Source of the DNA: an uncultured Chloroflexia bacterium
GTDB taxonomy: Bacteria; Chloroflexota; Limnocylindria; Limnocylindrales; CSP1-4
DNA: 64,000 nt
Direction of reading: 5' to 3'
Assembly (NCBI GenBank): GCA_963837215.1
Contig: CAWIML010000009.1
Span: forward strand, 295,058-359,057
The notes under the pieces are model-generated. The model was not told where the DNA came from. It saw only the letters and a program-made list of their open reading frames with translations, and made no database searches. The translations under genes and the position numbers were made by a program. How positions within the stretch are numbered: the first letter of the stretch is position 1; each line of letters opens with the position of its first letter. Positions 23,417 to 64,000 of the stretch are shown one piece after another.

Positions 23417-23427
23417 AACCCCCTGAG

Positions 23428-23462
23428 GCCCTTCCTCCGCAGGAAGGGTCTTCTCATTCCCG
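23428..23462 (+). terminator. Riboswitch expression-platform hairpin (transcription attenuator, OFF state).
   Basis: ccttcct-ccgc-aggaagg hairpin followed by gucuucucauucc (U-rich), ~45 nt before the ATG. Confidence 0.5.
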
Positions 23463-23506
23463 CCGGTCCTGCCGCGTTCCAGCCCCACCGCGCGAAGGAC
23501 CGACCG

Positions 23507-28915: not shown

Positions 28916-29083
28916 GCGTGGACTCCTTGTCGTCGTGCTGGTCGTATCGATCGCGTCCGTCGCCCGAAGGTCGGGCAGGCAGACGCCTGACTCAGCGCGA
29001 GGGTCGTCTCGTCACCTGACGGAGTCCTGAATCGAACGGATCTCCTGGTGCCCACGTCAGTGGACGCGGACGACCGAGGCCGG

Positions 29084-32685: not shown

Positions 32686-32761
32686 GTCGCCATGCGATGC
32701 GAGTGGTTCAGGCTCGCCCGAGGTGCACGGGCTGGCGCCAGCCCGTACCGGCACGATCGGC

Positions 32762-33685: not shown

Positions 33686-33848
33686 AACAGCCTCATGGGA
33701 TGTCCGGATGACCACGTCGGCGTTCGACGAGCGGCCGGACCGACCAAATGTACGCCTGAACGGGCCCGAGCGCCTCTGAGCGTGTGCAAGCCTGCATCGA
33801 GCGACCCGATCGGCGACCGGCAGGTCAGGCTCGCGCCGAGTCGCCCGG

Positions 33849-36800: not shown

Positions 36801-37472
36801 CGATCGACTGGAGGCGGCTGGCCGTATTGACCAGATCACCGGCGACCATGCCCTGATTGGTGGCACCGAGGGTGACCGCGGCTTCGCCGGTCAGGACACC
36901 GGCCCGCGCCTGGATACCGGGGCCGAGCGACCGGACGGCGTCGACGAGCTCGAGGGCCGGCGCGGACAGCGCGTTCCGCGTCGTCCTCGCGCGCGACCGG
37001 TGTGCCCCAGACGGCCATGACGGCGTCGCCGATGAACTTCTCCACCGTGCCGCCGTAGCGGCCGATGACGTCAGAGGCCAACTCGAAGTAGCGCGACAGC
37101 GTCTCGCGTACGTCCTCCGCGTCGCGCTCCTGGGCGAACGTCGTGAAGCCGATCAGATCGGCAAAGAGGACACTGACCAGACGGCGCTCCGCCACTGGGG
37201 TGGCCGACCCGGTGGGCGGTGCAGCGCCTCGACCGATGGCGGCCACGGACGGTTCGCTGCCGGCTACGTCGGCGTCGATGGGCGTGCCGCATTCGCTGCA
37301 GTACTTCGCAGTCGGCGCGTTCGCGGTGCCACAGGACGGACACAGCAGCGCGCATCTGCACGCCGCACTCGGAGCAGAACTTGGCACCGAGTGCGTTCTC
37401 CGTCCCGCAGTTGGCGCAATTCACCGACGGCCCTCCAGCAGTTGCCCGGATCGGATCGCGAGCGTACCCGAC
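33849..37472 (-). CDS. Giant signalling protein, paralogue 2 (zinc ribbons, adenylyl cyclase, STAND ATPase, TPR); at least three frame changes (~37345, ~36958, ~35737).
   Basis: Same architecture and roughly 70-80% protein identity to paralogue 1 (LVSVLFADLIGFT, GDAVMAVWGTP, ISGPGGIGKSRLA, ILLFEDLQWADSGLLDFIEQLLEWSKGVPILVVTLARPELFDRRPDWG). The pieces lie in ORFs 37071..37643, 36836..37387, 35479..36849 and 33849..35951. Confidence 0.8.
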
Positions 37473-37497: not shown

Positions 37498-39021
37498 TCA
37501 TGCCTCGGCGTTGATCTCCCGGGTGCGCCGTGCCACGTACGCGTCGAGCGCTTCGCCCACGGCCGGGTCCATAGGTGGCGGCCGCGCCTCGGCCAGGAGC
37601 TGCTTCCAGATCCGATTGGCGCGCTGCGTCGCCGTCTGGGCACCGTCCTCCTGCCAGGTCTCGAAGTTGCGCCAGTCCGAGAGGAGCGGGCGGTAGAAGG
37701 CGGTCTCGTAGCGCGCCATCGTGTGGGCGGTCCCGAAGTGGTGCCCGCCTGGCCCGACCTCGGCCATCGCCTCGAGCCCGAGCGTGCCCTCGTCGACGAC
37801 CATCGGCTGCAGCACCTCGGCCATCATCTGCAGGATCTCGGCGTCGAGGATGAGCTTCTCGTAGGAGGCCGTCAGGCCGCCCTCCAACCAGCCGGCACCC
37901 TGATACAGGAGGTTGACGCCACCGAGGATGGCGCCCCAGACGGCCATCTCCGACTCGTAGGCTGCCTGGGCGTCGACGACGTTGGAGGCGGTCACGTTCG
38001 AGGAGCGCCAAGGGAGACCGTATCGGCGTGCCAGCTGTCCCGTTGCGAAGGCGGCCTTGACGTACTCGGGCGTGCCGAAGGCCGGGGCGCCGGAGCGCAT
38101 GTCCACGTTGGAGGTGAAGCCGCCATAGACGACCGGCGCACCCGGTCGGGCGAGCTGGGTCAGGGCGACCATGAAGAGCGCCTCGGCGTTCTGCTGGGCA
38201 AGGGCGCCGGCGAGGGTGGCCGGGGTCATGGCGCCCGCCAGCGTGAATGGCGTGGCGACCACAGCCTGGCCGTGGATGGCCATCTCGATGAGCCCGTCTG
38301 ACATCGGGCCGTCGAGGCGCAGCGGGGTATTGGAGTTGATGATCGTCATCAGGCTCGGCCGCTCGAGGAGCCCGTCGCGATCGACGCCCAAGGCGAGACA
38401 ACTCATCTCGATGGCGTCGTCGACCACGACGCGCCCGGAGCCCAGGCACTGCCACGACTTGTCGAGCTCGGCGATGAGGATGCGGTACATCTCGAGGTGC
38501 CGAGTGGACACCGGCAAGTCGGTCGGCTCGAGGGGACCGCCGCCCTCCTGGTGCACGATGTCAAGGGCGCCGATGAGCCGCACGTAGTCGCGGAAGTCGG
38601 CGGCGTTGCCGGCCCGACGCCCGCGGTCGAGGTCGGTCACGAAGGCCGGCCCCCCGACGGCCCCGAAGACGACGTCGGCACCGCCGAACGTCAAGGCGCG
38701 CGCCGGGTTGCGAGCGTGGAGCGTGAAGGTCGAAGGCGCGCGCGCGACCAGCGCCTCGACCTGCGCGCCCTCGAGTCGCACGCGCCGTACGGCCCGGTCC
38801 ACGCTGGCTCCCGTCGATGCCAGGAGGTCGAGGGCGCGGTCGCCCATGACCTCGAAGCCGATCTCCTCGAGGATCCGGAGGCTGGCCCGATGGATGGTCT
38901 CGACCTGTTCGGGATCGAGGATCTCCACCGGGCGAAATGGATTGACGAGTCGGCGCCATGGCGGTCGGGCGAGGCCCCCGGCCTCGCGCCGGCCGCGCCG
39001 GCGGGCGCCCTCAGCCGTCAC
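37498..39021 (-). CDS. MttB-superfamily methyltransferase (trimethylamine / glycine-betaine:corrinoid methyltransferase-like); non-pyrrolysine type.
   Basis: 507-aa TIM-barrel methyltransferase recognised along its full length (...GGGPLEPTDLPVSTRHLEMY..., ...FGTPEYVKAAFATGQLARRYGLPWRSSNV...). No in-frame amber codon. Confidence 0.85.
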   Translation of the reverse strand: MTAEGARRRGRREAGGLARPPWRRLVNPFRPVEILDPEQVETIHRASLRILEEIGFEVMGDRALDLLASTGASVDRAVRRVRLEGAQVEALVARAPSTFTLHARNPARALTFGGADVVFGAVGGPAFVTDLDRGRRAGNAADFRDYVRLIGALDIVHQEGGGPLEPTDLPVSTRHLEMYRILIAELDKSWQCLGSGRVVVDDAIEMSCLALGVDRDGLLERPSLMTIINSNTPLRLDGPMSDGLIEMAIHGQAVVATPFTLAGAMTPATLAGALAQQNAEALFMVALTQLARPGAPVVYGGFTSNVDMRSGAPAFGTPEYVKAAFATGQLARRYGLPWRSSNVTASNVVDAQAAYESEMAVWGAILGGVNLLYQGAGWLEGGLTASYEKLILDAEILQMMAEVLQPMVVDEGTLGLEAMAEVGPGGHHFGTAHTMARYETAFYRPLLSDWRNFETWQEDGAQTATQRANRIWKQLLAEARPPPMDPAVGEALDAYVARRTREINAEA

Positions 39022-40705
39022 GGTCGCGTGCCAGGTAGGCCTCAGCGATGCGGTCGGCCGTCACGCGCGCGTCATAGGTGCCGGTGATGGCCAGCAGGAA
39101 GGCGTCGCGGTCGAGCGCCTGCAGCTCGACGTCGGTCAACGCCGTGACGGTCGCCGTACGCGGCACCGCGCGCATCAGCGCGATCTCCCCGAAGGCGTCG
39201 CCGCGCTCCAACTGGCGCAGCTGGCGCCCGTCCTGGCTGACGGCCAGCCGACCCCGTTCGACGACATAGAAGCGGTCGCCGACATCCCCCTGCCTGATGA
39301 CATCGCTGCCGCCTGCGTGGAGGATCGGTACCAGCGCGCGGGCGGCCGCTTCCAACGCCGGCGCCGGCACCGGGGCGAAGAGCGGCAGGCTCCGAAGCAG
39401 TCGGATCTCGAGCGTCGGTACACGGATGCGCCCCTCGGCGCGGCCCAGTCGGAACCAGGCGACGACCGCCCCGATCGGCAGCACAGCCGCGATCACGGCA
39501 AAGGTCGCCGGGAGGCCGATCCGTTGGACGAGGATGGCGGGCAGGATGGAGCCGACGGCGAGACCGGCCATGGCGAAGCCCTCGACGAGCCCGAAGACGC
39601 CAGCCAGGACATCATCAGGCACGATGCGTTGGAGGAGGGTCCGGCCGGCGACGTCGACGAGAGCAAGGCTGACGCCGCAGACCACCATCAGGCCCGCCGC
39701 CGCAGTCGCCGACTGGGCGAGTGGGGCCGCCAGCAGACCGAGTCCGAAGACGACGGCACCCAGCGCGAGCCACGGCGAGAGTCGGCCTCGACCAACCAGG
39801 ACGAGGGTCAGCGCGCCGCCGACCACGCCGCCGAGCCCGACGGCAGCCGTCAGGTAGCCGGCCCCGGCGCCTCCGATCTCGAGGACCTCGATGGCCAGCA
39901 GCACGAGCAGGACGTCGATGGCACCGATCATGACGTAGCGGGCGCCGAGCATGATGACCAGCAGCCGCTGGTCGGCATCGCGGCTGACCTGTCGGATGCC
40001 CTCGAAGAAGGAAGGCTGAGGCGCCGGGCGCGATCCGACCCGCGGGACATCGGGCGTGGCCGGGTCGCTGGCCGTTCGTTCGGGAGCGACGTCGGCCGCG
40101 CGGTGCGGTCGGAGCCGAAACGCCAGGAGCGTGGACAGGCTCACGAGGACGGCGCACACGATGAAGACCTGGCCCGGCTGTCCCGCGACCAGCATCAGCC
40201 CGGCCAGGATGGGCCCGATGAGCACGCCGAGCCCGTCGATGATGGTCGAGACGGCGTTGCCGGCCGTGACCTCCTGGGCGGTGTCGGCATAGGCGGGCAC
40301 GAGTGCCGCCTGGAGCGGCCGGGCGATGGTCAGGCTGCAGGAGTAGGCGACGGCGATCAGATAGACGAGCGCCGCGGGCAAGCCGATCAGCATCGCCGCC
40401 CCGACGGCCAGCGTCGTCAGTGCCAGCGCACCGTAGCCGGCCACGAGCAGGCGATCCCGACGATATCGATCACCGAGGCTGTTGACGAGCGGCGCGAAGA
40501 AGGCGGCCGGCACCAGCTGGCCGAACGCCACCAACCCGACCGAGGCTGGACCGGTCGCGTCGTAGGCGTAGACCAGGAGCGCGACCCAGGTTCCGTATTC
40601 GAGGATCGAAAAGCCCAGATACGCGAGAGCCATCCGGCGGAGGTCGTGGTTGCGGAGCACCGCGACGAAGGCACGCAGGGACGCACGGAGGCGGCTGGCG
40701 GGCAT
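39011..40705 (-). CDS. MFS transporter fused to a C-terminal cyclic-nucleotide-binding (cNMP/CAP-type) domain.
   Basis: Twelve TM MFS body followed by LRSLPLFAPVP...GDRFYVVERGRLAV...GDAFGEIAL...RTATVTALTDVELQALDRDAF. Confidence 0.8.
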   Translation of the reverse strand: MPASRLRASLRAFVAVLRNHDLRRMALAYLGFSILEYGTWVALLVYAYDATGPASVGLVAFGQLVPAAFFAPLVNSLGDRYRRDRLLVAGYGALALTTLAVGAAMLIGLPAALVYLIAVAYSCSLTIARPLQAALVPAYADTAQEVTAGNAVSTIIDGLGVLIGPILAGLMLVAGQPGQVFIVCAVLVSLSTLLAFRLRPHRAADVAPERTASDPATPDVPRVGSRPAPQPSFFEGIRQVSRDADQRLLVIMLGARYVMIGAIDVLLVLLAIEVLEIGGAGAGYLTAAVGLGGVVGGALTLVLVGRGRLSPWLALGAVVFGLGLLAAPLAQSATAAAGLMVVCGVSLALVDVAGRTLLQRIVPDDVLAGVFGLVEGFAMAGLAVGSILPAILVQRIGLPATFAVIAAVLPIGAVVAWFRLGRAEGRIRVPTLEIRLLRSLPLFAPVPAPALEAAARALVPILHAGGSDVIRQGDVGDRFYVVERGRLAVSQDGRQLRQLERGDAFGEIALMRAVPRTATVTALTDVELQALDRDAFLLAITGTYDARVTADRIAEAYLARDRDG

Positions 40706-40764
40706 GCCGTAAGCATCGCGTATCCGGCCACGGCTGCACACCTCCTGGCGGTACCCTCTTCGGC

Positions 40765-50558: not shown

Positions 50559-51038
50559 TCAGGCCTGTTCAGTCGGGCTCGACGCCGCGGTATCGAGGTC
50601 GACGACGACATCAGGCGCGTCGTCGACGGCACCCGACTCGATGAGCGTAGCGGAGTCGATCGTCGCCGCGGACGGATCCACCTCGAGGTCATGGATGCGG
50701 TGGATGCCGAAGCTGACCTGCGGCGGGATGGTGGCGGTGACCACGATCTCTCCGATCCGATACGCCGATGATTTGCTCCGGAGCGAGACATTGGCCCTCT
50801 CCTGGAGTGCCGTCGCCTTGATGACGACGTCAGCCAGGATGCCCGGATCGATCCTCTCGATGGCGGTCACGAGTTGCCGTCGCGCCTGACCAGCCATCTC
50901 CTTGGCGCCCACTTGCGCCGAATCTGCCAAGACCTTGGCACGTTCCTTGGCGCCCGGCGCCTCGGCCTTGGCGCGCTCGGTCAGCTCGCGGCTGGCCTCC
51001 TCTGCAGCCTGCCGGGCTTTGTCGAAGAACGAGGTCAT
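50559..51038 (-). CDS. Hypothetical protein (Lys/Ala-rich helical N-terminus plus a conserved C-terminal domain).
   Basis: A GGAGGG RBS lies 6 nt upstream of the ATG at 51038 (MTSFFDKARQAAEE...); the upstream part of the listed ORF is not protein-like. Confidence 0.5.
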   Translation of the reverse strand: MTSFFDKARQAAEEASRELTERAKAEAPGAKERAKVLADSAQVGAKEMAGQARRQLVTAIERIDPGILADVVIKATALQERANVSLRSKSSAYRIGEIVVTATIPPQVSFGIHRIHDLEVDPSAATIDSATLIESGAVDDAPDVVVDLDTAASSPTEQA

Positions 51039-51153
51039 CGAGGCCCTCCGCTGCGTCGATCCCGCATCCGCTCGGGTCGGCATCCTAGCATCGGCGCGTG
51101 CCTTGTCGCCTGGGCGCGAAGCCGCGCTGCGCACGCATGGCACCATACCGGGC

Positions 51154-53217
51154 GTGACCTCCCGGTATCCCGTGGCCGTCGATGCCCATGTCCGCATCCG
51201 GATGGCCGACGGCGTCCAGCTCGCGGCGACCATCCACCGACCGGATGGACCGGCTGCCTTCCCGGCGCTCCTGGAGTCGGTCCCGTACCGCAAGGACGAC
51301 TGGCTCATCCCGGGCCATCTCCCGATGCACGCCGAGTTCGCGGCCCGAGGCTACGCCTCCGTCCTCGTGGACGTGCGCGGCACGGGCTCGTCGGAGGGGG
51401 TGGCCGAGGACGAATACACCGAGGCCGAGATCACGGACAACCTGGCCGTGCTGGCCTGGCTTCGCGAGCAGCCCTGGTGCGACGGCTCGCTGGGCATGTT
51501 CGGCATCAGCTGGGGCGGATTCGCTGCGCTGCAGGCCGCGATGCGCCGTCCGCCCGGGCTCAGGGCCATCATCCCGGTCGGCGCCACCCACGATCGCTAC
51601 GCACTGGATGTCCACTACATCGGCGGCACGCTGCACGTCAACGAATCGGTCACCTGGCCGGTCGAGATGGTGGCCGAGAACGCGCTGCCACCCGATCCCG
51701 AGCGATTCGGACCCGGCTGGCGCGACGAATGGCTGCGGCGGCTCGAGGCGACTCCGCAATGGACCCAGGCCTGGCTCCGACACCAACGCCGCGACGGATA
51801 CTGGCGCCACGGGTCCCCATTCGTGGATTACGCGGCGATCGAGGCGCCCGTCCTGGCCATCAACGGATTCAACGACGGCTACCGCGACTTCGTGCTCGAG
51901 CTGCTCGAGCACCTGGACGTGCCTCGGCGCGGGGTGCTTGGGCCGTGGGGCCACAGTTGGGCGCATGCCGGCTGGCCGGATCCTTCGATCGATGGCCTGG
52001 GCCTCATGGCTCGCTGGTGGGACCGGTGGCTGCGAGGCATCGACAACGGGGTCGATCGAGAGCCGATGCTGGCCGCCTACCTGGCCGAGCCGACGCCGGC
52101 GGTCGAGTACCCCGCGCGGATGCCCGGCAGATGGTGGTTCGCGAATGTCTGGCCGCCCGCGCCGGATCGGTCGTCGGACGCGGCAAGGACATGGCGGCTC
52201 GGGGGTGGCGAGGTCCTCGAGGCTCCGGCAACAAGCATCGACGGGCCCGCCTCGCCGCCGCGGCACGCGCGAGCCCCCGGCGATGACGGTCGCTCCAGCA
52301 CCTGGGCCGGCCCGCCATGGGTCGGGGTGACCGCGCCATTCTGGGCGGGGAGCGGTCCGCCCGAAGGGCTGCCGGTGGACCAGCGCCCGGATGAAGCCGT
52401 CTCGCTGTGCTGGACGTCCGAGCCGCTCGACGAGGATCTGGCGCTCCTCGGGGGGCCGGTCGCCGAGCTCTGGTTGAGTGCATCGGAGACCGTCGCGCAG
52501 GCCGCGGTCAAGGTCGCCGACGTGGCGCCGGACGGCACGTCGGCGCTCATCGCGCGCGGCGTCCTCAATCTGACTCGACGTGGCGGCCTCTCGACCGCTG
52601 AACCGATGCAGCCCGGCCGGGTCGAGCGGGTCGAGGTTCCGCTCCAGGTCTGCGGGACCATCGTGCCGGCCGGTCATCGGCTGCGGGTGGCGATCGCCGG
52701 CGCCGATTGGCCGCTGGCCTGGCCGCCGCCGCGGCCGACGACGCTGACGCTCCTCCATGACGACGCGCACCCCTCTGCGATCCGCCTGCCCGTCCAGCGC
52801 GACCTGTCCGTCGACGGCCCGGACCTCGGCGCGCCCGGGCCCCTATCGGCCTTGAGCGAGGCGCTTGCCGCCGCTGCCCCGACCTCGAGCGTCGTTCGTC
52901 AGCCAGAGGGCGGCTGGCGCCTGTCCCTCGACGCGGAGGATGCCTGGCAACTGCCCGGACGAGGCCTGACCTGGCGTTCGGATGAGCACCTGCGGATCAC
53001 GATCGGCGAAGAGGATCCGGCCTCCTGCCGCGCCGAAGGGCGCGCCGGCATCAGCCTGACGTACCGCGACGGCTCCCGCTTCACGACCGCGGGCCGCATC
53101 GTCCAGTCGTGCGACCCGGAGCGGATCCACCTGCACATCGAGCTGTCGGTCAAGGAGGGCGACGCCGTCGTGCACGAGCAGGCCTGGGACGAGTCGTTCG
53201 AGCGGGACCTCCTGTGA
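51154..53217 (+). CDS. CocE/NonD-family hydrolase (S15 X-Pro dipeptidyl-peptidase fold).
   Basis: An alpha/beta-hydrolase core with GISWGG nucleophile elbow and a C-terminal jelly-roll domain. The start is probably the GTG near 51154 (or the ATG at 51202). Confidence 0.8.
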   Translation: MTSRYPVAVDAHVRIRMADGVQLAATIHRPDGPAAFPALLESVPYRKDDWLIPGHLPMHAEFAARGYASVLVDVRGTGSSEGVAEDEYTEAEITDNLAVLAWLREQPWCDGSLGMFGISWGGFAALQAAMRRPPGLRAIIPVGATHDRYALDVHYIGGTLHVNESVTWPVEMVAENALPPDPERFGPGWRDEWLRRLEATPQWTQAWLRHQRRDGYWRHGSPFVDYAAIEAPVLAINGFNDGYRDFVLELLEHLDVPRRGVLGPWGHSWAHAGWPDPSIDGLGLMARWWDRWLRGIDNGVDREPMLAAYLAEPTPAVEYPARMPGRWWFANVWPPAPDRSSDAARTWRLGGGEVLEAPATSIDGPASPPRHARAPGDDGRSSTWAGPPWVGVTAPFWAGSGPPEGLPVDQRPDEAVSLCWTSEPLDEDLALLGGPVAELWLSASETVAQAAVKVADVAPDGTSALIARGVLNLTRRGGLSTAEPMQPGRVERVEVPLQVCGTIVPAGHRLRVAIAGADWPLAWPPPRPTTLTLLHDDAHPSAIRLPVQRDLSVDGPDLGAPGPLSALSEALAAAAPTSSVVRQPEGGWRLSLDAEDAWQLPGRGLTWRSDEHLRITIGEEDPASCRAEGRAGISLTYRDGSRFTTAGRIVQSCDPERIHLHIELSVKEGDAVVHEQAWDESFERDLL

Positions 53218-54410
53218 GCGGATCGACCAGGCCAAGCCCCACCCGCGACGAGTACGAGGCCATCGTCGTCGGCCTCGGGGGCATCGGCTCCGGGGCGGCC
53301 TACTGGCTGGCGCGTCGGTTCGGGGATCGAGTCCTGGGGCTCGAGCAGTTCGCCTTCGGCCACGTCAACGGCGCATCACAGGACCACAGCCGCATCATCC
53401 GGCTCTCCTACCACCGACCCCATTACGTCCGCCTGGCCGCCCAGGCCTACGAGGCCTGGGCGGCCGTCGAAGCGGAGTGGGGCAGGCCGCTCATCGTGCG
53501 CACCGGCGGACTCGATCTCTGGCCGGTCACGGCGACGGAGATCCCGATGGCCGACTACACCGGCGCCATGGAGGCCTGCGACGTGCCCTATGAGCGGCTC
53601 GACGCGGACGAGGTCATGCGTCGCTGGCCACAGTGGCGCCTCGATCCGGACACGGTCGCGCTCTATCAGGAAGCCGCCGGCATCGCGCCGCCGATGCTGG
53701 CAAACGACGCGCACCGGACGCTGGCGCGACGTCGTGGTGCCACGCTCCTCGACGAGATGCCGGTCACCGCGATGCGCTCGACCGGCGCGGGGGTGGAGGT
53801 CGATGCCGGTGGTCAGACGTTTCGGGGCCGCAAGGTCTTCGTCTGCGCCGATGCCTGGACGAACGACCTGATCGCCCCGCTGGGCACGACGCTGCCGCTG
53901 ACCATCACCAAGGAACAGGTCACCTACTGGGCATCGCCGCACCTGGCCGAATTCGCCCCCGAGCGTTTCCCGGTCTGGATCTGGATGGACGTGCCCAGCT
54001 TCTATGGCTTCCCAGCCTTCGGCGAGCCTGGACCCAAGGGCGCCCAGGACGTAGGCGGGCGACCGACCACGCCCGGCACTCGCGACTTCGCGCCTGACCC
54101 GGACGCCTTCGCCCGCCTGAGCGCCTTCATGGGCGAGCACCTGCCACACGCCCTCGGCCCGGTCCTCTACACCAAGACCTGTCTCTACACCATGCCCCCG
54201 GACCGGGACTTCGTGCTCGACGCCCTGCCGGGGCACCCGGACATCCACGTCGCGCTGGGGGCGGCGCACGGCTTCAAATTCGCCTCGCTCTTCGGGCGCA
54301 TCTTCAGCGAGCTCGCCGTCGAGGGTTCCACGAGCTCGGACCTCGAGCCGTTCCGGATCGACCGGCCGATCCTCCGCGAGCCGCATCCGCCCACCAGCTT
54401 CATGATCTAA
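53214..54410 (+). CDS. FAD-dependent N-methyl amino acid oxidase (monomeric sarcosine oxidase / N-methyltryptophan oxidase, SolA-like).
   Basis: GTG start overlapping the CocE stop (GTGA). Dinucleotide fold YEAIVVGLGGIGSGAAYWLARR and a DAO-family C-terminus with HGFKFA. Confidence 0.8.
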   Translation: MSGSTRPSPTRDEYEAIVVGLGGIGSGAAYWLARRFGDRVLGLEQFAFGHVNGASQDHSRIIRLSYHRPHYVRLAAQAYEAWAAVEAEWGRPLIVRTGGLDLWPVTATEIPMADYTGAMEACDVPYERLDADEVMRRWPQWRLDPDTVALYQEAAGIAPPMLANDAHRTLARRRGATLLDEMPVTAMRSTGAGVEVDAGGQTFRGRKVFVCADAWTNDLIAPLGTTLPLTITKEQVTYWASPHLAEFAPERFPVWIWMDVPSFYGFPAFGEPGPKGAQDVGGRPTTPGTRDFAPDPDAFARLSAFMGEHLPHALGPVLYTKTCLYTMPPDRDFVLDALPGHPDIHVALGAAHGFKFASLFGRIFSELAVEGSTSSDLEPFRIDRPILREPHPPTSFMI

Positions 54411-54510
54411 CGCAGCGCGTCCGGTGGACTCGGGCTACCTCGTTGCAAGGAACCCTGTAACGCTGCGGTTCGCGTGAGAATTCGCCACCGTTTCTTACGA
54501 ATCTCGCAGG

Positions 54511-54539
54511 TTGACCCATCCACGCCCGATGGGGATACT
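54511..54539 (+). promoter_or_regulatory. Candidate sigma70-type promoter (TTGACC, 17 nt, GATACT) with a ~100-nt leader before the peptide ABC operon.
   Basis: Hexamers read directly from the sequence; the surrounding ~120 nt are noticeably less GC-rich than the flanks. Confidence 0.3.
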
Positions 54540-54647
54540 GGACCGCGATAGAGATACCGAAAGGCGCTGCCGCCGCGGGTGAGCGGGCCGCGACCTGAGC
54601 GGAGCCGACGTGCCGCGCGCGGGCCGGCTGCTGTACGAGGAGGAACG

Positions 54648-56542
54648 ATGCTCACGTCCGCACGCGCCCGTCGCTGGCGTCCGGTCCTGATCCTGGCGTC
54701 GCTGGCCGCGATGCTGCTGCCGTCGGCGATCCCTGTCGCCGCCGCGGACCCGGTCATCCTCAAGATCGGGACCGTCCAGGATCTCGACTCGATGAACGCC
54801 TACGAGACCGAGTTCTTCATCGGCTATGAGATCTTCGGCCTCAACTACGACCTGCTCGTGGGCTACGGCCCGAACGCCGAGCCCGCCGCCGGCTTCACCG
54901 AGTCATGGATGCAGGACGGAACGAAGTGGACATTCAAGATCAACCCCGACCTCAAGTGGTCGGACGGCACGCCCGCAACGTCCGAGGACGCGCGCTGGAC
55001 GATCCAGAAGCTGCTCGACGGTCAGGCCGCGGATGGTTACGTGGGGGCCGGTTACCTCGACCCCTACCTGACGTACGCCGGCGTCACGGCCGTCTCCGCA
55101 CCAGACCCGCAGACGCTGGTCATCGAAACCGCGACACCGAATACGCAGATCCTGACCTCATACCTGCCCATCCTGCCCAAGCATGTCTGGGAGACCCGCG
55201 ACATCGGGACCGACGCGAACAAATCCCCGGTCGTCGGCTCCGGCGCCTACCAGACGGCGGAGTGGAAGCCCGGCGAGTACGTCCGTATGGTCCGCAACCC
55301 CCACTACTGGGGTCCGAAGGGATTCGCCGACGAGATCTTCTTCCAGTTCTTCAAAGACGAAGGCGCGATGGTCGAGGCCTTCAAGAACGGCGAGATCGAC
55401 TACGCCCGCAACGTGACCGCGGACCAGTACGAGCAGCTCAAGGGCCTGCCAGACATGGTGACCGTCGAGTCCGCGCTGGCGGCCGAGGCGAACGCCTTCA
55501 CGATGCTCAACTTCAACGGCTACAGCAAGCCCATCGAAGGTGGTGGCGCCTCGACGCTGGCGGTCCAGGATCCTGCCTTCCGCGATGCCCTTGGGTACGC
55601 CATCGACAAGCCGGCACTCGTTGACAAGGTCCTCGGCGGCCACGGGCTCGTCGGCACGACGCACATCCCGCCGGCCATGGCCGGAGGTTTCTGGCACTAC
55701 GAGCCCCAGAACCAGCGGACCTTCGACATCGAGGTCGCCAAGCAAAAGCTCACGGACGCCGGCTACAAGCTCGACGCGAATGGCAAGCGCCTCGACAAGG
55801 AGGGCAAGCCGATCGACCTCAAGATGGTCGTGCCGGACAGCTCCACGAGCTATGCGCAGAGCGCCGAGTTCATCGCCGGCTGGTGGAGTGAACTGGGCAT
55901 CGATGTCACGACCCGGCCTACGACGGGGACACGGTGACCGCCATCGAGTCGCCACCCGAAGCCGACCCGCCCGGCAAGGCCGACTTCGACGTCGGCGTCT
56001 GGAACTGGGGCGGCGACGTCGACCCGAACTCGCTGCTCAACATCCTGACCACCGACTACATCCCCGCCGGCAGCGACACGTTCTTCTCCAACCCGCGCTA
56101 CGACGAGCTGATGATGCTTCAGGGAGCCGAGCCCGATCCGGCCAAGCGCAAGGTCCTGACTGACGAGATGCAGCAGATCATGTACGACGAGGCGCCGTAC
56201 CACGTGCTCTTCTATGACGCGGCCTTGCATGCCTATCGGACGGACAAATTCGGTGGCTGGACCTTGCAACCCGAGGAAGGGGGGCTCCCCTTCTTCGGCT
56301 TCGGTAACCGCAACTACAACTTGTTGACCGCACCCGAACCGGAGGCCACGCCCGCCCCGTCCGACGCCGCTGTTTCGCCGGGTGCCTCGGCGGCGCCGTC
56401 GCCAGGGACAGACGCCGGCACCGGAAGCAGCGACAACACCCCCCTCGTCCTTGGTGGCGCCGCGATCCTGATCTTGATCGGGATCGTCGCCGTGGTGCTC
56501 ATGCGCCGACGCGGCGCGAAGGGCGACGAAGAAGAGGCGTGA
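54648..56542 (+). CDS. ABC transporter substrate-binding protein, family 5 (peptide/nickel, DppA/OppA-like) with a C-terminal TM anchor; one frame change at ~55930.
   Basis: A GAGGAGGAA RBS precedes the ATG at 54648. Signal peptide, SBP_bac_5 body, then ORF 55934..56542 carries the tail ending in LVLGGAAILILIGIVAVVLMRRRG. Confidence 0.8.
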
Positions 56543-56590
56543 TCCAGGCCTGGCTCCGGCGGGTCGACCCGACGGCCTCAGGCTGACGAC

Positions 56591-57563
56591 ATGCGCTCCG
56601 GCTACCTCGGTCGCCGAGTCCTGCAGGCGATCGCCACGATCGTGGCGATCGTGCTGCTCAACTTCGTCCTCTTCCGGATGATGCCCGGGCTCGCCCGACC
56701 GCATGTCGCGCAACCCGAACGCGAGTCCGGAGGCCCAGGCCGCCATCCGGGAGCGCTTCGGACTCGACAAACCACTCTTCCCCGACCAGTTCGTGGACTA
56801 CGTGGCGGCGACGGTGCAGGGCGATTTCGGCGAGTCGTTCAAGTATCGCAACCAGCCCGTCGCGGAGGTCATCGGTGGGCGGATCCTGCCCACGCTCGTC
56901 CTCTTCGGCCTCGGCGAGCTGATCGCCATCGCGGTCGGCTTCACCCTCGGCGCATACAGCGGATGGCGACGTGGTGGGCCGGTCGACTATGCCGGCAACG
57001 GCATCTCGCTGGTCCTCTACTCGGTGCCTTACTTCCTGCTGGGCATGATCCTGCTCATCATCTTCGCCACGAACCTGGGCTGGTTCCCGACGTCGGGCAT
57101 GACCACCCTGGGGGCTACCTACGACTCCTGGGTCGAGCAGGCCGGCGACTTCCTGAGCCACCTCGTCCTGCCGCTGGCGGCCGTCAGCCTGGGGTTGATC
57201 GGGCAGTACTCGATCCTCATGCGCTCATCGATCATCGACACCCGCGGCGAGGACTACGTCCAGACCGCGAAGGCCAAGGGGCTCAAGGAGTCGAAGGTCC
57301 TGCGGTCGCACGCGGTTCCCAATGCGCTCCTCCCGACGATCTCGCTGGTGGGCATCAACATCGGTTTCATCGTCGCCGGCGCCATCACCGTCGAGGTCGT
57401 CTTCAATTGGCCCGGGCTCGGCACACTCACGCAGGAGGCGCTACAGGCACGTGACTACCCGGTCCTGCAGGGCATCTTCCTGATCCTGGCCGTCTCGGTC
57501 GTCGCCGCCAACCTCCTGGCCGACTTCGCCTACGGCTTCCTCGATCCGCGGGTCAAGTTGTGA
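56591..57563 (+). CDS. ABC transporter permease (DppB/OppB-like); one frame change at ~56695.
   Basis: The N-terminus MRSGYLGRRVLQAIATIVAIVLLNFVLFRMMPG is in ORF 56591..57454. The remainder, including the EAA-like loop (KAKGLKESKVLRSHAVPNALLPTISLVG), is in ORF 56703..57563. Confidence 0.8.
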
Positions 57564-58510
57564 CCGTCGGCCAGGCAGTGGTCACAGCCCGGCGCCGTAG
57601 CCGATGGTCGCTTCGGGTGGCTGGCTGGAAGTCATTCGGTCGTCGTTTCCTGGGCCGGCCGGAGGGCGTCATCGGCCTTGTCATCATCGGCTTCTTCGCC
57701 ATCCTGGCCATCGCGCCGGCGCTCTTCGTGGGTCCGCTCGAGACGGCCACCACGGCCACCGGAGGGCGCCTCGAGCCCCCGAGTGCGGAGCACATCCTGG
57801 GCACCGACACGCTCGGGCGCGACGTCCTCAACCAGACCGTCCACGGCGCCCGGATCTCGATGCTCATCGGGCTCCTGGCGACGCTCGTGACGGTCGTCGT
57901 CGGCGTCCTGCTGGGGATCGTCTCGGGCTTCGTCGGTGGCCGGACCGATACCGCGATCATGCGCGTGACCGACTTCTTCCTCGTCCTGCCGACCTTCGTC
58001 CTGGCCCTCATCCTGGCGCCCATCGTGCTCGACGTGATCGGTGACAACACCGAGATCGCAGGCATCCGCACGACGCTCCTGGTCATCGTCATCGTCATCG
58101 GCATCACGAGCTGGGCGACGACGGCGCGCATCATCCGGTCACAGACGCTCTCGGTCAAAGAGCGCGCGTTCATCGATCGGGCACGGGTCATCGGGGCCAG
58201 TGGCTGGCACACCATGCGCGTGCACATCCTGCCCAACGTGATGGGCCTCATCGTGGCCAATGCCGTGCTCATCTTCGCGGGCGCCATCCTGACCGAGACG
58301 ACCCTCGCATTCATCGGCCTCGGCGACCCGTTCGCGCCGTCCTGGGGGCAGATCCTGGGAGGGGCCCAGGAAGCAGGCGCGCCCGGCCTCGGCGCCTGGT
58401 GGTGGTACATGTCGCCTGGCGTCTGCATCGTGCTCGTCGTCCTGGCCTTCACGCTCATCGGCGGGGCACTCGATGACCTGCTCAACCCGAAGGCTCGCGG
58501 TCGGCGATGA
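57560..58510 (+). CDS. ABC transporter permease (DppC/OppC-like).
   Basis: GTGA overlap with the upstream gene. Six TM helices and an EAA loop (RARVIGASGWHTMRVHILPNVMGLIV). Confidence 0.85.
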   Translation: MTVGQAVVTARRRSRWSLRVAGWKSFGRRFLGRPEGVIGLVIIGFFAILAIAPALFVGPLETATTATGGRLEPPSAEHILGTDTLGRDVLNQTVHGARISMLIGLLATLVTVVVGVLLGIVSGFVGGRTDTAIMRVTDFFLVLPTFVLALILAPIVLDVIGDNTEIAGIRTTLLVIVIVIGITSWATTARIIRSQTLSVKERAFIDRARVIGASGWHTMRVHILPNVMGLIVANAVLIFAGAILTETTLAFIGLGDPFAPSWGQILGGAQEAGAPGLGAWWWYMSPGVCIVLVVLAFTLIGGALDDLLNPKARGRR

Positions 58511-59745
58511 GCTTGATGCCACCGTCGGCCGACGCGCGACCGCCCGACGAGCCGACCGAGCCTACCCACACGGAGCCGATCGATCCGCTGCCTCCCCTCG
58601 ACCCGGCAGCCGCCATCGAGCTCGACCAGGCGGCCGGCCTGACGCGGCGCGTCGGCCGCCGGCAGTGGCCGCTGCCCAAGGGCGCCGACCCGGACGCGCC
58701 ACTCCTCGTGGTCGAGAACCTGACCACGGAGTTCGCGCTCGAGAAGACCACCGTGCACGCCGTGGACGGCGTCTCCTTCACGCTCCGTGACGGCGAGGCG
58801 CTGGGCATCGCCGGCGAGTCAGGCTGTGGCAAGACGACGACGGCGCTCTCCCTGGTCCGGCTGCTGCCGAGCAACGGCCGCATCGCATCGGGCAGCGTTC
58901 GGATGTATGGCGTGGACCTCATCCCCAAGTCGGAGGCCGGCCTGAGGCGCTACCGGTGGCGCGAGATCTCGATCGTCTTCCAGGGCGCCATGAACGCGCT
59001 CAACCCGGTCGTCCGCGTCGGCGACCAGATCGCGGAGCCCATGGAGGAACGCCTCGGCCTCTCGCCGACCGAGGCCCGCAAGCGGGCGCGCGACCTGCTC
59101 GAGCGGGTGGGCATCCCGCGTGCGCGGGCCAAGGCCTATCCGCATGAGCTCTCGGGTGGCATGCGGCAGCGGGCCATGATCGCCATGGCCCTCGCCTGCG
59201 ATCCGGCCATCGTCATCGGCGACGAACCGACGACCGCCCTCGACGTGATGGTCCAGGCCCAGGTGCTGCAGCTGCTCGAGGAGCTGCGCGAGGAGCTGGG
59301 CCTCTCGCTCATCCTCATCACCCACGACCTGTCAGTCATCGCCGAGACGTGCGATCGGGTCATGGTCATGTACGCGGGACGGGTGGCGGAGGAGGGCCCG
59401 GTGCGGCGCATCTTCGCCCAGCCGCGGCATCCCTACACGCAGATGCTCATGCGGGCCTTCCCGAACATCCACTCCGACCGGCGGACCCTCGGCGTCATCC
59501 ACGGCTCGCCGCCGGATCTGCGCGACCCACCGCCCGGCTGCCGGTTCCATCCGCGTTGCCCGATGGCCATGGACGTGTGTCGCGTCGAGCGTCCGCCCGA
59601 GTTGACCTTCGACGACGGCGTCCGCGTCGCCTGTCATCTCTACGCACCGGACACGGTGGGCGAGCAGGTCCCGGTCCCGATCGAGGAGGTCGTCGCGGCG
59701 GCGGGCGAGGCAGGCACCGTGGCGGTCGAGGAGGCCATCGCATGA
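58507..59745 (+). CDS. ABC transporter ATP-binding protein (DppD/OppD-like) with the oligopeptide C-terminal domain.
   Basis: Walker A GESGCGKTT, signature LSGGMRQR, Walker B IVIGDEPTTALD. ATGA overlap on both sides. Confidence 0.9.
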   Translation: MSLMPPSADARPPDEPTEPTHTEPIDPLPPLDPAAAIELDQAAGLTRRVGRRQWPLPKGADPDAPLLVVENLTTEFALEKTTVHAVDGVSFTLRDGEALGIAGESGCGKTTTALSLVRLLPSNGRIASGSVRMYGVDLIPKSEAGLRRYRWREISIVFQGAMNALNPVVRVGDQIAEPMEERLGLSPTEARKRARDLLERVGIPRARAKAYPHELSGGMRQRAMIAMALACDPAIVIGDEPTTALDVMVQAQVLQLLEELREELGLSLILITHDLSVIAETCDRVMVMYAGRVAEEGPVRRIFAQPRHPYTQMLMRAFPNIHSDRRTLGVIHGSPPDLRDPPPGCRFHPRCPMAMDVCRVERPPELTFDDGVRVACHLYAPDTVGEQVPVPIEEVVAAAGEAGTVAVEEAIA

Positions 59746-60885
59746 GCGACCCTCTGGTGCGACCCGACCAGCTCGGTACCGCGAGAGAGCTCCGGTGACC
59801 CGCTCGTTCGGCTCGAAGGCCTGCAGGTCTGGTTCCCCGTCCGCGGCGGCATCCTCGACCAGATCCGGCGGCGTCCGGTCGGCTACGTCCATGCCGTCGA
59901 CGGCATCGACCTCGACATCCGGCGAGGGGAGGTCCTGGCGCTCGTCGGCGAGTCGGGTTCGGGCAAGACGACCACCGGCCGCGTCGTCGTCCGGCTGACC
60001 AGGCCGACCGGTGGCGAGATGCGCTTCGAGGGCAAGGACTCGATCGAGCTCAAGGGCGCCGCGGCCAAGGCCTACCGGCTGCAGGTGCAGCTCATCTTCC
60101 AGGACCCCTACGAGACGCTCGACCCGAAGCAGACCATCCGCGACTTCGTGGCCGAGCCGCTCGAGGTCAACGGCATCGCGAAGGACCCGGCCGAGCGCGA
60201 AGCCCGGGTGGCCGATGCGCTCGAGGCGGCCGGCCTGCGCCCAGCCTCCGACTTCCTGTTCCGCTTCCCGCATGAGCTCTCCGGCGGCCAGCGCCAGCGC
60301 GTCGTCATCGCCGGTGCCCTGGTCCTCGGTCCCACCCTCGTCGTGGCCGACGAACCGGTCTCCATGCTCGACGTCTCCATCCGCACCGAGCTGCTATCGC
60401 TGATGCTCGACCTGCGCAAGGAACGCGGCCTGACGTACCTGTTCATCACTCACGACCTCTCGCTGGCCTGGGTCATCGCCGACCGCATCGCGGTCATGTA
60501 CCTGGGCAAGATCCTCGAGATCGGGCCGGCCCAGACGGTCATCCACGACCCGCGCAACCCCTATACGCGGGCGCTCGTGAGCGTGCTGCCGACGCCGGAG
60601 CCGCCGCAGGTCACGGAGGGCACCCGCCGCTCCCGGACGATCCTCCAGGGCGAGACGCCTGACGCCGCCGTCATCCCAGACGGTTGCCGCTTCCACCCCC
60701 GCTGCCCGCTGGCCTTCGACCGCTGCCGCGTCGAGGAGCCACCGCTCTTCGACCTCGGCGACGGCCATGCCTCGGCCTGCTGGCTGGTCGAGGGCGGCAA
60801 GCGCCTGCCACCGCTCGGCGACGGCGCTCCCGAGCCCGTCGTCAGTGATCCGGCATCGCCTCCGCGATCGTCCGCAGCGACCTGA
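59742..60885 (+). CDS. ABC transporter ATP-binding protein (DppF/OppF-like); one frame change at ~59790.
   Basis: ATG at 59742 (MSDPLVR...). The Walker A region [11 protein letters not shown] lies in a frame with no start codon upstream, and the rest is ORF 60019..60885 ([20 protein letters not shown]). Confidence 0.8.
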
Positions 60886-62842: not shown

Positions 62843-64000
62843 TCAATGACGACCCAGGAATCGCGCCAGGCTGAGTCCGCTCGGGGCCTTGCCGGTCCGG
62901 TCGGCCCTGGCATCGATGCCTGCGAATGCCTGCTGGGTGTAGCGGACGCCGATGAAACGGAGCGGCTCCGGCTCCCAGTCCGGCGAGCGGTGGTTGGCCA
63001 TCGGCAGCTCGGTCAGCGGCGATGGCGTCTCGAGGATGAGATCCACGAGCGTCCGCGCGGCGAGGTTGGAGAGGGCCACGCCGTGGCCGACATAGCCGCG
63101 CGCCGAGGCGACGCCGGTCGCCGGGTCGTGGCTGAACGTCGGCATCCAGTCGCGGGCCATGCCGATCGGCCCGCCCCAGGCGTGCGTGAAGTTGATCGTC
63201 TCGAGCGACGGGAACCAGGCGCGGACCATGCCGCGGAGCATCTCGTGGGTGGCCGGATGCTCGTCGTATCCAGGGCGGATCTTCGAGCCGAAGTGGTACG
63301 GCGCGCCCCGCCCACCGAAGAGGATGCGGCCGTCCGGCGTTCGCGCCAGGTAGTCGATGCTGGCTCGGAAGGAATGGACGCTCTCGCGGTCCGCCCAGCC
63401 GATGGTCTCCCACTGCGCGTCCGTGAGCGGTTCCGTCAGCACGATCAGGGAGTAGACCGGGATGAGCTGGCGGTGGAGTCGCTGGAGCTGCGTCAGCCAG
63501 GCCTCCCCCGCCAGGACCACGGTCCGCGCCCGGACGTCGCCCAGCTCGGTGTGCAGGATGGGACGTGAGCCGACGACACCACGGGCCAGATCGGCAGGCG
63601 TGCCGGGCGTGAAGCCGGTCACGTTCGTTCCCTCGTGGAGCGTGGCGCCGCGACGCTCCACCGCGCGAGCCAACCCGCGGACGAGCTTGGCTGGCTGGAT
63701 CGACGCGTTGTCGCGGGAGAAGAGCCCGCCGAGCGCCCCGGCGACGCGCAGTCGCGAGGCCAGCTGCGCCACACCGAGCCGCTCATGGCGATCGCCGAAA
63801 CCGAACTGCTCGTAGACGCGCAGGGTCTCCTCCAGGGCTGGTAGCTGGTTCGGACCGCGCGCCACGGCGATCCGTCCGCCCTTGTGCCAGTCGATGGCGA
63901 TGCTCTCCTCGCCGGCCGCCCGTCCGACCTCGTCCACCGCGTCGATCGTCGCCAGCACGGTCTCTCTGGCAAGGGCGGTGCCGTGGCGCCGGGCGAGCTC
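62843..64000 (-). CDS. FAD-dependent oxidoreductase (DAO / glycine-oxidase-like); the N-terminus lies beyond the window end.
   Basis: DAO-family C-terminal two-thirds (HGVALSNLAARTLVDLI). The reading frame is still open at position 64000. Confidence 0.75.
   Translation of the reverse strand, partial: ELARRHGTALARETVLATIDAVDEVGRAAGEESIAIDWHKGGRIAVARGPNQLPALEETLRVYEQFGFGDRHERLGVAQLASRLRVAGALGGLFSRDNASIQPAKLVRGLARAVERRGATLHEGTNVTGFTPGTPADLARGVVGSRPILHTELGDVRARTVVLAGEAWLTQLQRLHRQLIPVYSLIVLTEPLTDAQWETIGWADRESVHSFRASIDYLARTPDGRILFGGRGAPYHFGSKIRPGYDEHPATHEMLRGMVRAWFPSLETINFTHAWGGPIGMARDWMPTFSHDPATGVASARGYVGHGVALSNLAARTLVDLILETPSPLTELPMANHRSPDWEPEPLRFIGVRYTQQAFAGIDARADRTGKAPSGLSLARFLGRH

Follow-up and report, generated by a model that had tools for sequence, protein, structure and literature searches.

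Gene organization of the MttB locus

The window, i.e. the whole 64-kb stretch of DNA analysed here, contains a methyltransferase gene of the MttB superfamily, whose start overlaps with the end of a transporter gene on the same strand. The features at this position are as follows:

37498..39021, minus strand: gene of a non-pyrrolysine (non-Pyl) MttB-superfamily methyltransferase, 507 aa, GTG start and TGA stop
39011..40741, minus strand: gene of an MFS transporter with a C-terminal cNMP-binding domain (Pfam MFS_1 and cNMP_binding), upstream of the MttB gene and co-directional with it
39011..39021, minus strand: 11 nt (GTGACGGCTGA) shared by the MFS gene end (stop codon) and the GTG start of MttB, from sequence reading

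Reading of the ORF gave no internal stop codon over the 507 aa, and the GC content at the three codon positions (0.72/0.51/0.90) is typical of a real gene in a 70% GC genome. When 42 homologues were aligned with the MttB protein, the N-terminal residues R8, R9, R12, P21 and W22 turned out to be conserved, which supports the 507-aa start; the public gene call for the identical protein (P0002) has 476 aa and starts 31 residues further in. The dN/dS of the gene is 0.12-0.23, and the gene is under purifying selection, in line with a retained function. No cobalamin riboswitch was found in the 64-kb window. Neighbouring genes of this long-read assembly show frame breaks that may be sequencing errors.

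The first-pass annotation had read the abutting transporter as a clue to the function of the methyltransferase. The two genes are probably co-transcribed, and the overlap on the same strand, the adjacency kept in the three closest relatives and the adenylate-cyclase-domain genes directly downstream would all fit a dedicated uptake-and-demethylation operon under cyclic nucleotide control. However, 80 of the 84 species lack the adjacency, and the 4 that have it are all the closest relatives. Besides, the MFS protein is most like H+-antiporter/EntS-type exporters and not betaine importers (NCBIfam), so that from its sequence it looks like an exporter, and the scan for promoters and terminators around the MttB gene gave no assignable site. 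Such an operon is therefore very improbable, and the adjacency, which is lineage-specific and probably not functionally tied to MttB, loses its value as a clue.

Family assignment and the pyrrolysine position

The window protein matches PF06253 (MTTB) over profile positions 6-499 of 500 (Pfam; E 1.8e-190, 633.7 bits, with a gathering cut-off of 25 bits). Its best solved relatives are 4YYC, an MtgB-type protein of Sinorhizobium meliloti, and 9YCE and 2QNE, both MtgB of Desulfitobacterium hafniense. Over the full length it is 39% identical to MtgB and 40.6% to 4YYC, while these two are closer to each other (45%) than to the window protein. The AlphaFold2 model (pTM 0.85) shows the TIM barrel and the helical extension at the C-terminus that MtgB and MttB also have. 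In Foldseek comparisons over about 485-500 columns, its TM score is 0.85-0.91 to 9YCE, 2QNE and 4YYC (0.86-0.91 for MtgB) and 0.83 to 7XCL, the pyrrolysine-dependent MttB of Methanosarcina barkeri. Model confidence is low for the loops around the pocket, where residues 160-163 and 376-383 have a pLDDT below 50. With 4YYC, the window protein also shares an Arg-rich N-terminal extension and a GWLEGG motif.

The pyrrolysine position was located by HMMER alignment to 7XCL, in which pyrrolysine is written as 'X':

37993..37995, minus strand: codon GTG (Val343), at the position where M. barkeri MttB has pyrrolysine (UAG)

With the end-to-end PF06253 match and Val343 at this position, the earlier assignment as a full-length non-Pyl member of the superfamily is upheld. 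Automated sources give the protein the generic label 'trimethylamine--corrinoid protein Co-methyltransferase', and only this label would suit a true pyrrolysine-dependent trimethylamine (TMA) methyltransferase with a misread UAG, a reading of practically negligible probability. An internal TAG was looked for in the window reading and none was found; codon 343 is read as Val, and 120 of 120 clade homologues are uninterrupted at about 507 aa. With TIGR02369, the equivalog of Pyl-type TMA methyltransferases, the window protein scores 302 bits, below the cut-off of 525. M. barkeri MttB, which has the superfamily and the TIM-barrel fold in common with it, is only 23% identical in the structural alignment and carries Pyl instead of Val, and a Pfam search of the GC3-supported ORFs found no pyl genes in the window. 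The Pyl-MttB identity is already refuted by the sequence.

Substrate pocket

To describe the substrate pocket, two further features within the gene are needed:

38005..38007, minus strand: codon for Arg339, the equivalent of MtgB R312 and, from the alignment, the predicted carboxylate anchor
37876..38655, minus strand: substituted pocket region with Gly123 (for Y97), Gln374 (for H348) and Gly382 (for F356), which also encodes the subfamily-invariant Glu159, Trp190 and Trp378

The first-pass annotation had counted glycine betaine among the possible substrates and pointed to the active-site residues of MtgB. It turned out that the site is not degenerate, and neither is it the glycine betaine site of MtgB: among the four glycine-betaine-binding residues of MtgB (Y97/R312/H348/F356), only R312 is kept, which gives a G-R-Q-G pattern against Y-R-H-F in MtgB. 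In the carboxylate pair, R312 corresponds to Arg339 and H348 is replaced by Gln374, while the aromatic pair (Y97 and F356) is missing, with glycine at both positions. Within the clade, the G/R/Q/G pattern occurs in 119-120 of 120 members: Arg339 is invariant (120 of 120, and in a further alignment as well), position 123 is Gly in 119 and position 382 is Gly in all 120. R312 is common to all characterised members acting on acidic quaternary amines, and the aromatic pair is specific to glycine betaine; in MtgB mutants the Km rises 300-fold for Y97A, 800-fold for F356L and 26-45-fold for H348N/A, with weak activity left in H348N (PMC13080624).

From these residues we infer that the substrate class would be an acidic quaternary amine or another N-methylated amine. 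Since the pocket of the subfamily differs from those of both known glycine-betaine-linked enzymes, another betaine, or a wider set of substrates, seems more likely than glycine betaine. 4YYC keeps Y, R and H, so the window protein does not appear to be an orthologue of the core-cluster MtgB of the 4YYC type with its Y-R-H pocket.

A G-R-(H/Q)-G subfamily in Limnocylindrales and Proteobacteria

We defined a subfamily by its pocket, with glycine in place of both Y97 and F356, arginine as in R312 and histidine or glutamine where MtgB has H348, together with the invariant residues E159, W190 and W378. The window protein (pocket GRQG) has these residues and, judged by sequence, is a member of this uncharacterised MttB subfamily of Limnocylindrales and Proteobacteria. 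Orthologues with 72-85% identity are present in 80 species-level Limnocylindrales/Chloroflexota genomes; the clade thus extends over 80 or more species of Limnocylindrales from soil and freshwater, and in the soil ones it is nearly universal. For 120 proteobacterial relatives, the pocket types are GRHG (105), GRQG (12) and SRHG (3), with W190 and W378 in 120 of 120 and E159 in 119. The closest cultured relatives (loci L007-L009) share 52-56% identity with the window protein, against 40.6% for 4YYC. For instance, WP_127751438 (Parasedimentitalea marina pW43C) and WP_140761866 (Mesorhizobium sp. B2-1-8), both named 'trimethylamine methyltransferase family protein', have the same pocket pattern and the same E159, W190 and W378 as the window protein, and like the window locus they have no adjacent corrinoid genes.

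What differs is the context. The proteobacterial members are flanked by an OYE-type flavoprotein demethylase, DMGDH-like enzymes, sarcosine oxidase, S15 or M24 hydrolases and ABC importers, from which the Limnocylindria orthologues are mostly free. The Oxidored_FMN+Pyr_redox_2 flavoprotein adjoins subfamily members in 5 loci. Such neighbours are genes of the N-methyl-amine oxidative demethylase type, which points to a catabolic role in these relatives. We found no report in the literature of an MttB gene paired with DgcA/StcD. Tentatively, the subfamily may be a widespread specificity class for a betaine or N-methylated acid new to the MttB family, and with it a new aerobic route of N-methyl catabolism, or a non-canonical partner if the genomes are without MtgC-type corrinoid proteins.

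Neighbours in the window and at orthologue loci

To place the gene in its context, we searched 84 orthologue neighbourhoods with a total of 1.44 Mb, in which the Limnocylindria loci reach +/-10 kb. Generally, the Limnocylindria loci contain mostly syntenic genes with no apparent relation to MttB (MacAB efflux, a two-component system, pentose-phosphate genes), and therefore give little information on the substrate. Two further features of the window have to be considered:

50890..60885, plus strand: candidate catabolic module with a CocE/NonD S15 hydrolase, an MTOX/MSOX-type N-methyl amino acid oxidase and an Opp-type ABC transporter (Pfam, NCBIfam)
62843..64000, minus strand: DAO-family FAD oxidoreductase, cut by the window end, 58% identical to the DAO behind the KamD-like gene upstream of MttB orthologues

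The module at 50890..60885 lies 12 kb from the MttB gene, and a functional relation between them is possible but hypothetical. A comparable set of S15 and Opp genes flanks subfamily members in Mesorhizobium and Aestuariivirga; we rejected the module in the window as an orthologue of that set, the likeness being at family level only (S15 36% and binding protein 21% identical). A link between the DAO gene and MttB is likewise hypothetical.

Of the 84 loci, 30 have a KamD-like gene (PF09043, 100 bits) upstream of MttB and co-directional with it; in nine of them the distance is at most 81 nt. The gene recurs in this place in soil Limnocylindrales. Its product, a TIM-barrel protein, is only distantly homologous to lysine 5,6-aminomutase alpha, with 69 bits to PDB. 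As a candidate for the missing B12 partner it was rejected: it has no B12-binding motif, it usually comes with M55 and DAO genes, and it is absent from the plasmids of cultured bacteria. Together with the M55 D-aminopeptidase and the DAO oxidase, it seems to form a D-amino-acid module of its own.

In 8 of 84 species, all of them Limnocylindria, a choline dehydrogenase gene (BetA) is located downstream of MttB on the same strand, 16-164 nt away in three, and the BetA protein passes the TIGR01810 equivalog cut-off (805.7 vs 732.1). This gene pair raises the question of whether the enzyme is specifically a glycine betaine methyltransferase of the aerobic MtgB type, which would convert glycine betaine made by BetA to dimethylglycine, with a cage of W190 and W378 replacing Y97/F356. 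R339 is kept, and 4YYC, which lies inside a glycine betaine/methionine cluster and has the GWLEGG motif in common, is also without F356. In addition, the Parasedimentitalea homologue with the identical G-R-Q-G pocket adjoins soxBDAG and a DMGDH-like enzyme, that is, the next two steps of glycine betaine catabolism. However, of the four binding residues validated by experiment, three are exchanged, at positions where the MtgB mutants show large Km rises (PMC13080624), and both glycine-betaine-linked enzymes stand at the 39-41% identity given above. In S. meliloti, a separate subfamily copy on pSymA belongs to another betaine-type cluster, which hints at a specificity of its own. MtgB1 and MtgB2 of Ruegeria pomeroyi are absent from the best 120 matches (at least 62% identity) of a Rhodobacteraceae subfamily member. 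As proof of a glycine betaine substrate the BetA operon is weakened, for the block is limited to one sub-lineage and runs on into pentose-phosphate genes (6PGD, G6PD) and luciferase-like genes. Glycine betaine is possible but not favoured as substrate, and we regard this specific assignment as rather unlikely.

Corrinoid partner genes and proposed function

As the first-pass annotation had claimed, no corrinoid partner lies nearby, and three independent tests agree on this over the whole 64-kb window. Pfam searches of all GC3-supported ORFs in the window found no genes for a corrinoid protein, a pterin methyltransferase or RamA. Neither tblastn with the E. coli MetH modules nor tblastn with MtgC, MtgD, RamA, DUF1638, MetF2 and MtgE of S. 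meliloti had a match in the window or in the 84 orthologue neighbourhoods, and a scan of the same sequences for the B12 motif DxHxxG..SxL..GG, with MetH as positive control, gave a single, spurious match.

This stand-alone position, which had been taken as a peculiarity of the gene, turned out to be shared: a partner is found in 0 of 84 orthologue neighbourhoods. For its MtgB, D. hafniense encodes the cognate corrinoid protein DSY3155 and, as methylcorrinoid:THF methyltransferase, MtgA. Genes of these types are found neither in the window nor at the 84 loci, and the host here belongs to a soil lineage of Chloroflexota, with neighbours of the aerobic type. The aerobic MtgBCD(E) system of R. pomeroyi and S. 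meliloti is similar in layout, as a pfam06253 module in an aerobe whose partners can be unlinked and common to paralogues. In R. pomeroyi, mtgC, mtgD and ramA lie apart from the genes of both MtgB1 and MtgB2, and one MtgC is assumed to serve as many as seven pfam06253 paralogues (PMC12478193, PNAS 2025). In S. meliloti, 4YYC is encoded within a complete core cluster, together with a cobalamin-binding protein, DUF1638, a MeTHF:cobalamin methyltransferase, MTHFR, a RamA-like protein and bmt, in contrast to the window with no partner in 64 kb. This species also has satellite MttB copies, including a subfamily copy (L008) with no partner genes nearby. With these two examples, the stand-alone arrangement is not unusual.

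We favour, with modest confidence, the reading that the gene encodes a working substrate-specific methyltransferase (MT1) of a cobalamin-dependent three-component system, the corrinoid protein of which would be encoded elsewhere. This keeps the betaine-type demethylase with a distant corrinoid protein, as suggested earlier, as the most likely explanation, in view of a full-length non-Pyl MttB member, no local partner and the precedent of unlinked partners; that the enzyme depends on a corrinoid, that remote partners exist and what class the substrate belongs to are all inferred. In the proposed mechanism, the TIM-barrel enzyme would bind a quaternary (or other N-methylated) amine with an acidic group, which Arg339 would anchor at the bottom of the barrel, so that one N-methyl group is presented to Co(I) of the corrinoid protein. 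The methyl group would then pass to tetrahydrofolate via a pterin-binding methyltransferase. The corrinoid protein, this second methyltransferase and the reductive activase would be encoded elsewhere and would probably be common to several MttB paralogues, a layout of satellite module plus shared core as in aerobic Proteobacteria.

The lack of partners in the window and in the 1.44 Mb of neighbourhoods counts against a remote corrinoid protein, and so does a survey of freshwater Chloroflexi MAGs proposing the class Limnocylindria, in which corrin-ring biosynthesis genes and known cobalamin transporters were found in none of its MAGs (PMC6169038). The same observations would suit a divergent or orphan enzyme without a corrinoid protein, which uses free cobalamin or another partner, e.g. 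the KamD-like protein with its same-strand upstream gene, or catalyses a different reaction; MtgB does methylate free cob(I)alamin in vitro. However, all characterised superfamily members are corrinoid-dependent (PMC13080624), unlinked partners are the documented norm in aerobes (PMC12478193), and the KamD-like gene, besides the objections given above, is absent from the loci of the proteobacterial members. An orphan enzyme is thus improbable, and the MT1 with a remote corrinoid protein remains the reading we prefer.

Implications for annotation

To our knowledge, non-pyrrolysine MttB homologues number in the thousands, while the substrates known for them are few: glycine betaine, proline betaine, carnitine, gamma-butyrobetaine and (phospho)choline. 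In automated annotation, all of these homologues receive the name 'trimethylamine methyltransferase', which inflates estimates of anaerobic methylotrophy in soils from metagenomes. The gene in the window is a routine addition to an already known enzyme family in an ordinary arrangement, and its product probably takes a methyl group off a betaine-like compound. The Limnocylindrales clade, without the glycine betaine pocket and apart from corrinoid genes, cautions against the use of such genes as markers of TMA or glycine betaine. The subfamily is conserved and easily expressed, and the assignment of its substrate would extend aerobic, cobalamin-dependent turnover of methyl amines.

The MttB gene is intact and lacks pyrrolysine

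At a GC content of about 70%, the window contains many long ORFs that are spurious. The ORF at 37498-39021 (-), with a GTG start, a TGA stop and no internal stop in 507 aa, shows a codon-position GC of 0.72/0.51/0.90, the pattern of a real gene. The protein matches positions 6-499 of the 500 in the Pfam MTTB profile (PF06253, E 1.8e-190) and scores 302 bits with TIGR02369, the NCBIfam equivalog for the Pyl-dependent TMA methyltransferase, which is under the cut-off of 525 bits. In the HMMER alignment, Val343 (codon GTG) takes the place of the pyrrolysine 'X' of M. barkeri MttB (7XCL), so the gene is indeed the full-length non-Pyl member without in-frame TAG described by the first-pass annotation. 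The 507-aa start is supported because R8, R9, R12, P21 and W22 are near-invariant in 42 homologues and the alignment with 4YYC (an S. meliloti MttB-family structure) begins at residue 6; in one public gene call (P0002) the start lies 31 residues further downstream.

The AlphaFold2 model (pTM 0.85, mean pLDDT 80.8) superposes well on D. hafniense MtgB (9YCE/2QNE) and 4YYC (TM 0.85-0.91) and also on M. barkeri MttB (TM 0.83). The dN/dS against seven orthologues is 0.12-0.23, indicating that the gene is kept by selection. The gene is thus real and intact, and as a member of a very large family, most of it unassayed, it is ordinary. The MAGs with an identical or near-identical protein carry the labels Candidatus Limnocylindrales or Chloroflexota, and among species-representative genomes 80 such MAGs have an orthologue (72-85% identity); many of these are long-read 'MFD' soil assemblies. 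Frequent mttB-type annotations have already been reported for Ca. Limnocylindria MAGs (PMC11264602).

Active site and subfamily

Mutagenesis and a crystal structure with bound ligand have mapped the glycine betaine site of MtgB: the cation-pi contacts come from Y97 and F356, and the carboxylate is bound by R312 and H348. The enzymes for carnitine, proline betaine, gamma-butyrobetaine and phosphocholine share R312, while the aromatic pair Y97/F356 is specific to glycine betaine (PMC13080624). In the MAFFT alignment, the window protein keeps R312 as R339 and has G123, Q374 and G382 in place of Y97, H348 and F356. This pocket is matched by 119-120 of 120 clade homologues, and that of 4YYC is Y-R-H-G. 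Glycine betaine is a possible substrate of the window protein, but the pocket argues against it.

The window protein groups with proteobacterial 'trimethylamine methyltransferase family proteins' of Parasedimentitalea, Sinorhizobium pSymA and Mesorhizobium (52-56% identity); it is only 39-41% identical to the two glycine-betaine-linked enzymes, which share 45% with each other. A further 120 relatives have GRHG (105), GRQG (12) or SRHG (3) in the pocket, with E159 (119 of 120), W190 and W378 invariant. Glycine betaine enzymes have Ser at 159 and Phe at 190, where this subfamily has Glu and Trp. No R. pomeroyi protein appeared among relatives of at least 62% identity, and no characterised subfamily member was found in the searchable literature.

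Corrinoid partners are probably encoded elsewhere

Pfam annotation of every GC3-supported ORF in the window found no B12-binding, B12-cap, pterin-binding, URO-D, RamA or DUF1638 domain, and the window has no cobalamin riboswitch. Over the window plus a total of 1.44 Mb around the orthologues at 84 loci, tblastn with four E. coli MetH modules and with S. meliloti MtgC, MtgD, RamA-like protein, DUF1638, MetF2 and MtgE gave no match, and a DxHxxG..SxL..GG motif scan (positive controls MetH and S. meliloti MtgC) was negative. The earlier claim of no corrinoid partner nearby is thus borne out, and the absence extends to the whole clade. The earlier freshwater Chloroflexi MAG survey that proposed the class Limnocylindria detected no corrin-ring biosynthesis genes and no known B12 transporters in any of its MAGs (PMC6169038).

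In the aerobe Ruegeria pomeroyi, the genes of the glycine-betaine-induced pfam06253 proteins SPO2108 and SPO2134 are not linked to those of MtgC (SPO2160, cobalamin-binding), MtgD (SPO1863, pterin-binding) and RamA (SPO2041), and one MtgC was proposed to be common to up to seven pfam06253 paralogues (PMC12478193). S. meliloti has the same layout, here as a core cluster plus a satellite copy. The 4YYC sequence matches, at 100% identity, a gene inside a complete core cluster, with a cobalamin-binding protein, DUF1638, methyl-THF:cobalamin methyltransferase, MTHFR, a RamA-like ASKHA protein, ferredoxin, bmt and a betaine ABC transporter, while a second MttB-family copy, on a symbiotic plasmid, has no core-cluster genes within 12 kb. 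This second copy is the one to which the window protein is related, a paralogue pattern which also argues against glycine betaine. With this layout in both aerobes, the stand-alone position of the window gene is not unusual.

4YYC was deposited by structural genomics as 'trimethylamine methyltransferase ... unknown ligand'. As its gene lies in an mtgBCDE-type cluster (S. meliloti locus L091, CP090106.1, 4992-23151; a 3.7 Mb record labelled 'plasmid pSymB'), it is probably the aerobic glycine betaine methyltransferase. In the pSymA records of many S. meliloti strains, 1021 included (e.g. NC_003037.1 812267-813721), tblastn matches the subfamily copy without an annotated protein, and the copy may be flagged there as a pseudogene; strain LMB1 has it annotated.

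Gene neighbourhoods

In Proteobacteria, the subfamily adjoins oxidative N-demethylation genes. An orthologous flavoprotein (680-715 aa, 50-68% mutual identity) with Oxidored_FMN and Pyr_redox_2 domains, the architecture of TMADH, DgcA and StcD, lies beside the MttB gene in five alphaproteobacterial loci:

L009 9866-11947
L092 9669-11789
L093 5971-8004
L094 4995-7142
L095 5238-7319

This pairing is consistent in Alphaproteobacteria, often with a TetR regulator, and is joined by an S15 hydrolase and an Opp ABC transporter in two genomes; our literature search found no paper on it. Other proteobacterial neighbours are DMGDH-like enzymes (~800 aa), sarcosine oxidase subunits, S15 (CocE/NonD) or M24 hydrolases and betaine-type or Opp-type ABC importers. 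These neighbours fit a quaternary to tertiary to secondary amine route, in which the context does not name the compound; the sox/DMGDH context of a GRQG homologue speaks for glycine betaine.

The substrate signal is weaker in Limnocylindria. A genuine BetA choline dehydrogenase (805.7 bits, cut-off 732.1) follows the MttB orthologue downstream, in the same orientation, in 8 of 84 species (gap 16-164 nt in three), which also keeps glycine betaine a candidate, but the BetA block runs on into pentose-phosphate genes. The window neighbours are:

39011-40741 (-): MFS gene, overlapping the MttB start by 11 nt
50890-60885 (+): CocE/NonD S15 hydrolase, MTOX/MSOX-type oxidase and five-gene Opp-type ABC transporter, operon-like, 12 kb from MttB

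The overlap confirms that MttB abuts the MFS-cNMP transporter and suggests that the two genes may be co-transcribed. This adjacency is limited to the window and its three closest relatives (4 of 84 species), and we read it as lineage-specific synteny; most other species have a divergent operon for MacAB-type efflux upstream (27 of 84). The MFS protein most resembles H+ antiporter/EntS-type exporters. In the second set, the flavoenzyme is of N-methyl-L-tryptophan/sarcosine oxidase type (288.8 bits, cut-off 257) and the hydrolase shares only 36% identity with those adjoining MttB in Proteobacteria; the gene content suggests that an N-methylated peptide or ester is taken up and oxidatively N-demethylated.

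Taken together, the window protein is most likely the first methyltransferase of a cobalamin-dependent system, acting on an acidic quaternary amine, with partners encoded elsewhere.

Other observations

A KamD-like TIM-barrel gene (L006 290-1873; PF09043, 100 bits), remotely homologous to lysine 5,6-aminomutase alpha in PDB (69 bits) and with no B12-binding subunit or motif, precedes the MttB orthologue, with the same orientation, in 30 of 84 species (at most 81 nt away in nine), and stands directly upstream in L017, L020, L044, L031, L051, L057, L059 and L073. M55 D-aminopeptidase and DAO oxidase are its frequent companions. Since the window DAO, cut by the edge (62843-64000), is 58% identical to the companion DAO, the window's own KamD-like copy may lie just past 64000. 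In 25 of 84 species a second, very divergent MttB-family paralogue (~26% identical; e.g. L004 13952-15484 (-) and L006 3595-5118 (-)) is found downstream in the opposite orientation, with an S-Q-S-L pocket lacking even the carboxylate-anchoring Arg, and is often adjoined by a TPP-dependent enzyme and a DUF6855 gene.

Directly downstream of MttB, two tandem paralogous genes (28992-37387 (-); zinc-ribbon, adenylate-cyclase, AAA_16 and TPR domains) are both broken by frame changes, e.g. the cyclase domain split near 36850, as is the Opp-type binding protein (54552-56542). Gene calls are similarly fragmented in close relatives, and long-read assembly was used for many related MAGs, which makes indel errors no less likely an explanation than pseudogenes. 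An Rfam ASdes sRNA match (52 bits; 33309-33376 (+)) between the cyclase genes, where relatives have a fatty-acid desaturase gene (FA_desaturase_2; L002 15656-16579), may be a desaturase remnant or a chance match in GC-rich sequence. Two riboswitches were also found:

3051-3141 (-): c-di-GMP-II-GAG riboswitch (RF03169, 64 bits), upstream of a large surface-protein gene with Big_9/cadherin repeats (924-2741 (-))
23310-23415 (+): SAM riboswitch (RF00162, 79 bits), directly 5' of a PALP gene (23378-24862 (+))

The PALP gene, threonine-synthase-like with a Cys-rich N-terminal segment and followed by a DUF4395 gene, may be a SAM-regulated, ThrC-like gene of homocysteine or methionine biosynthesis.
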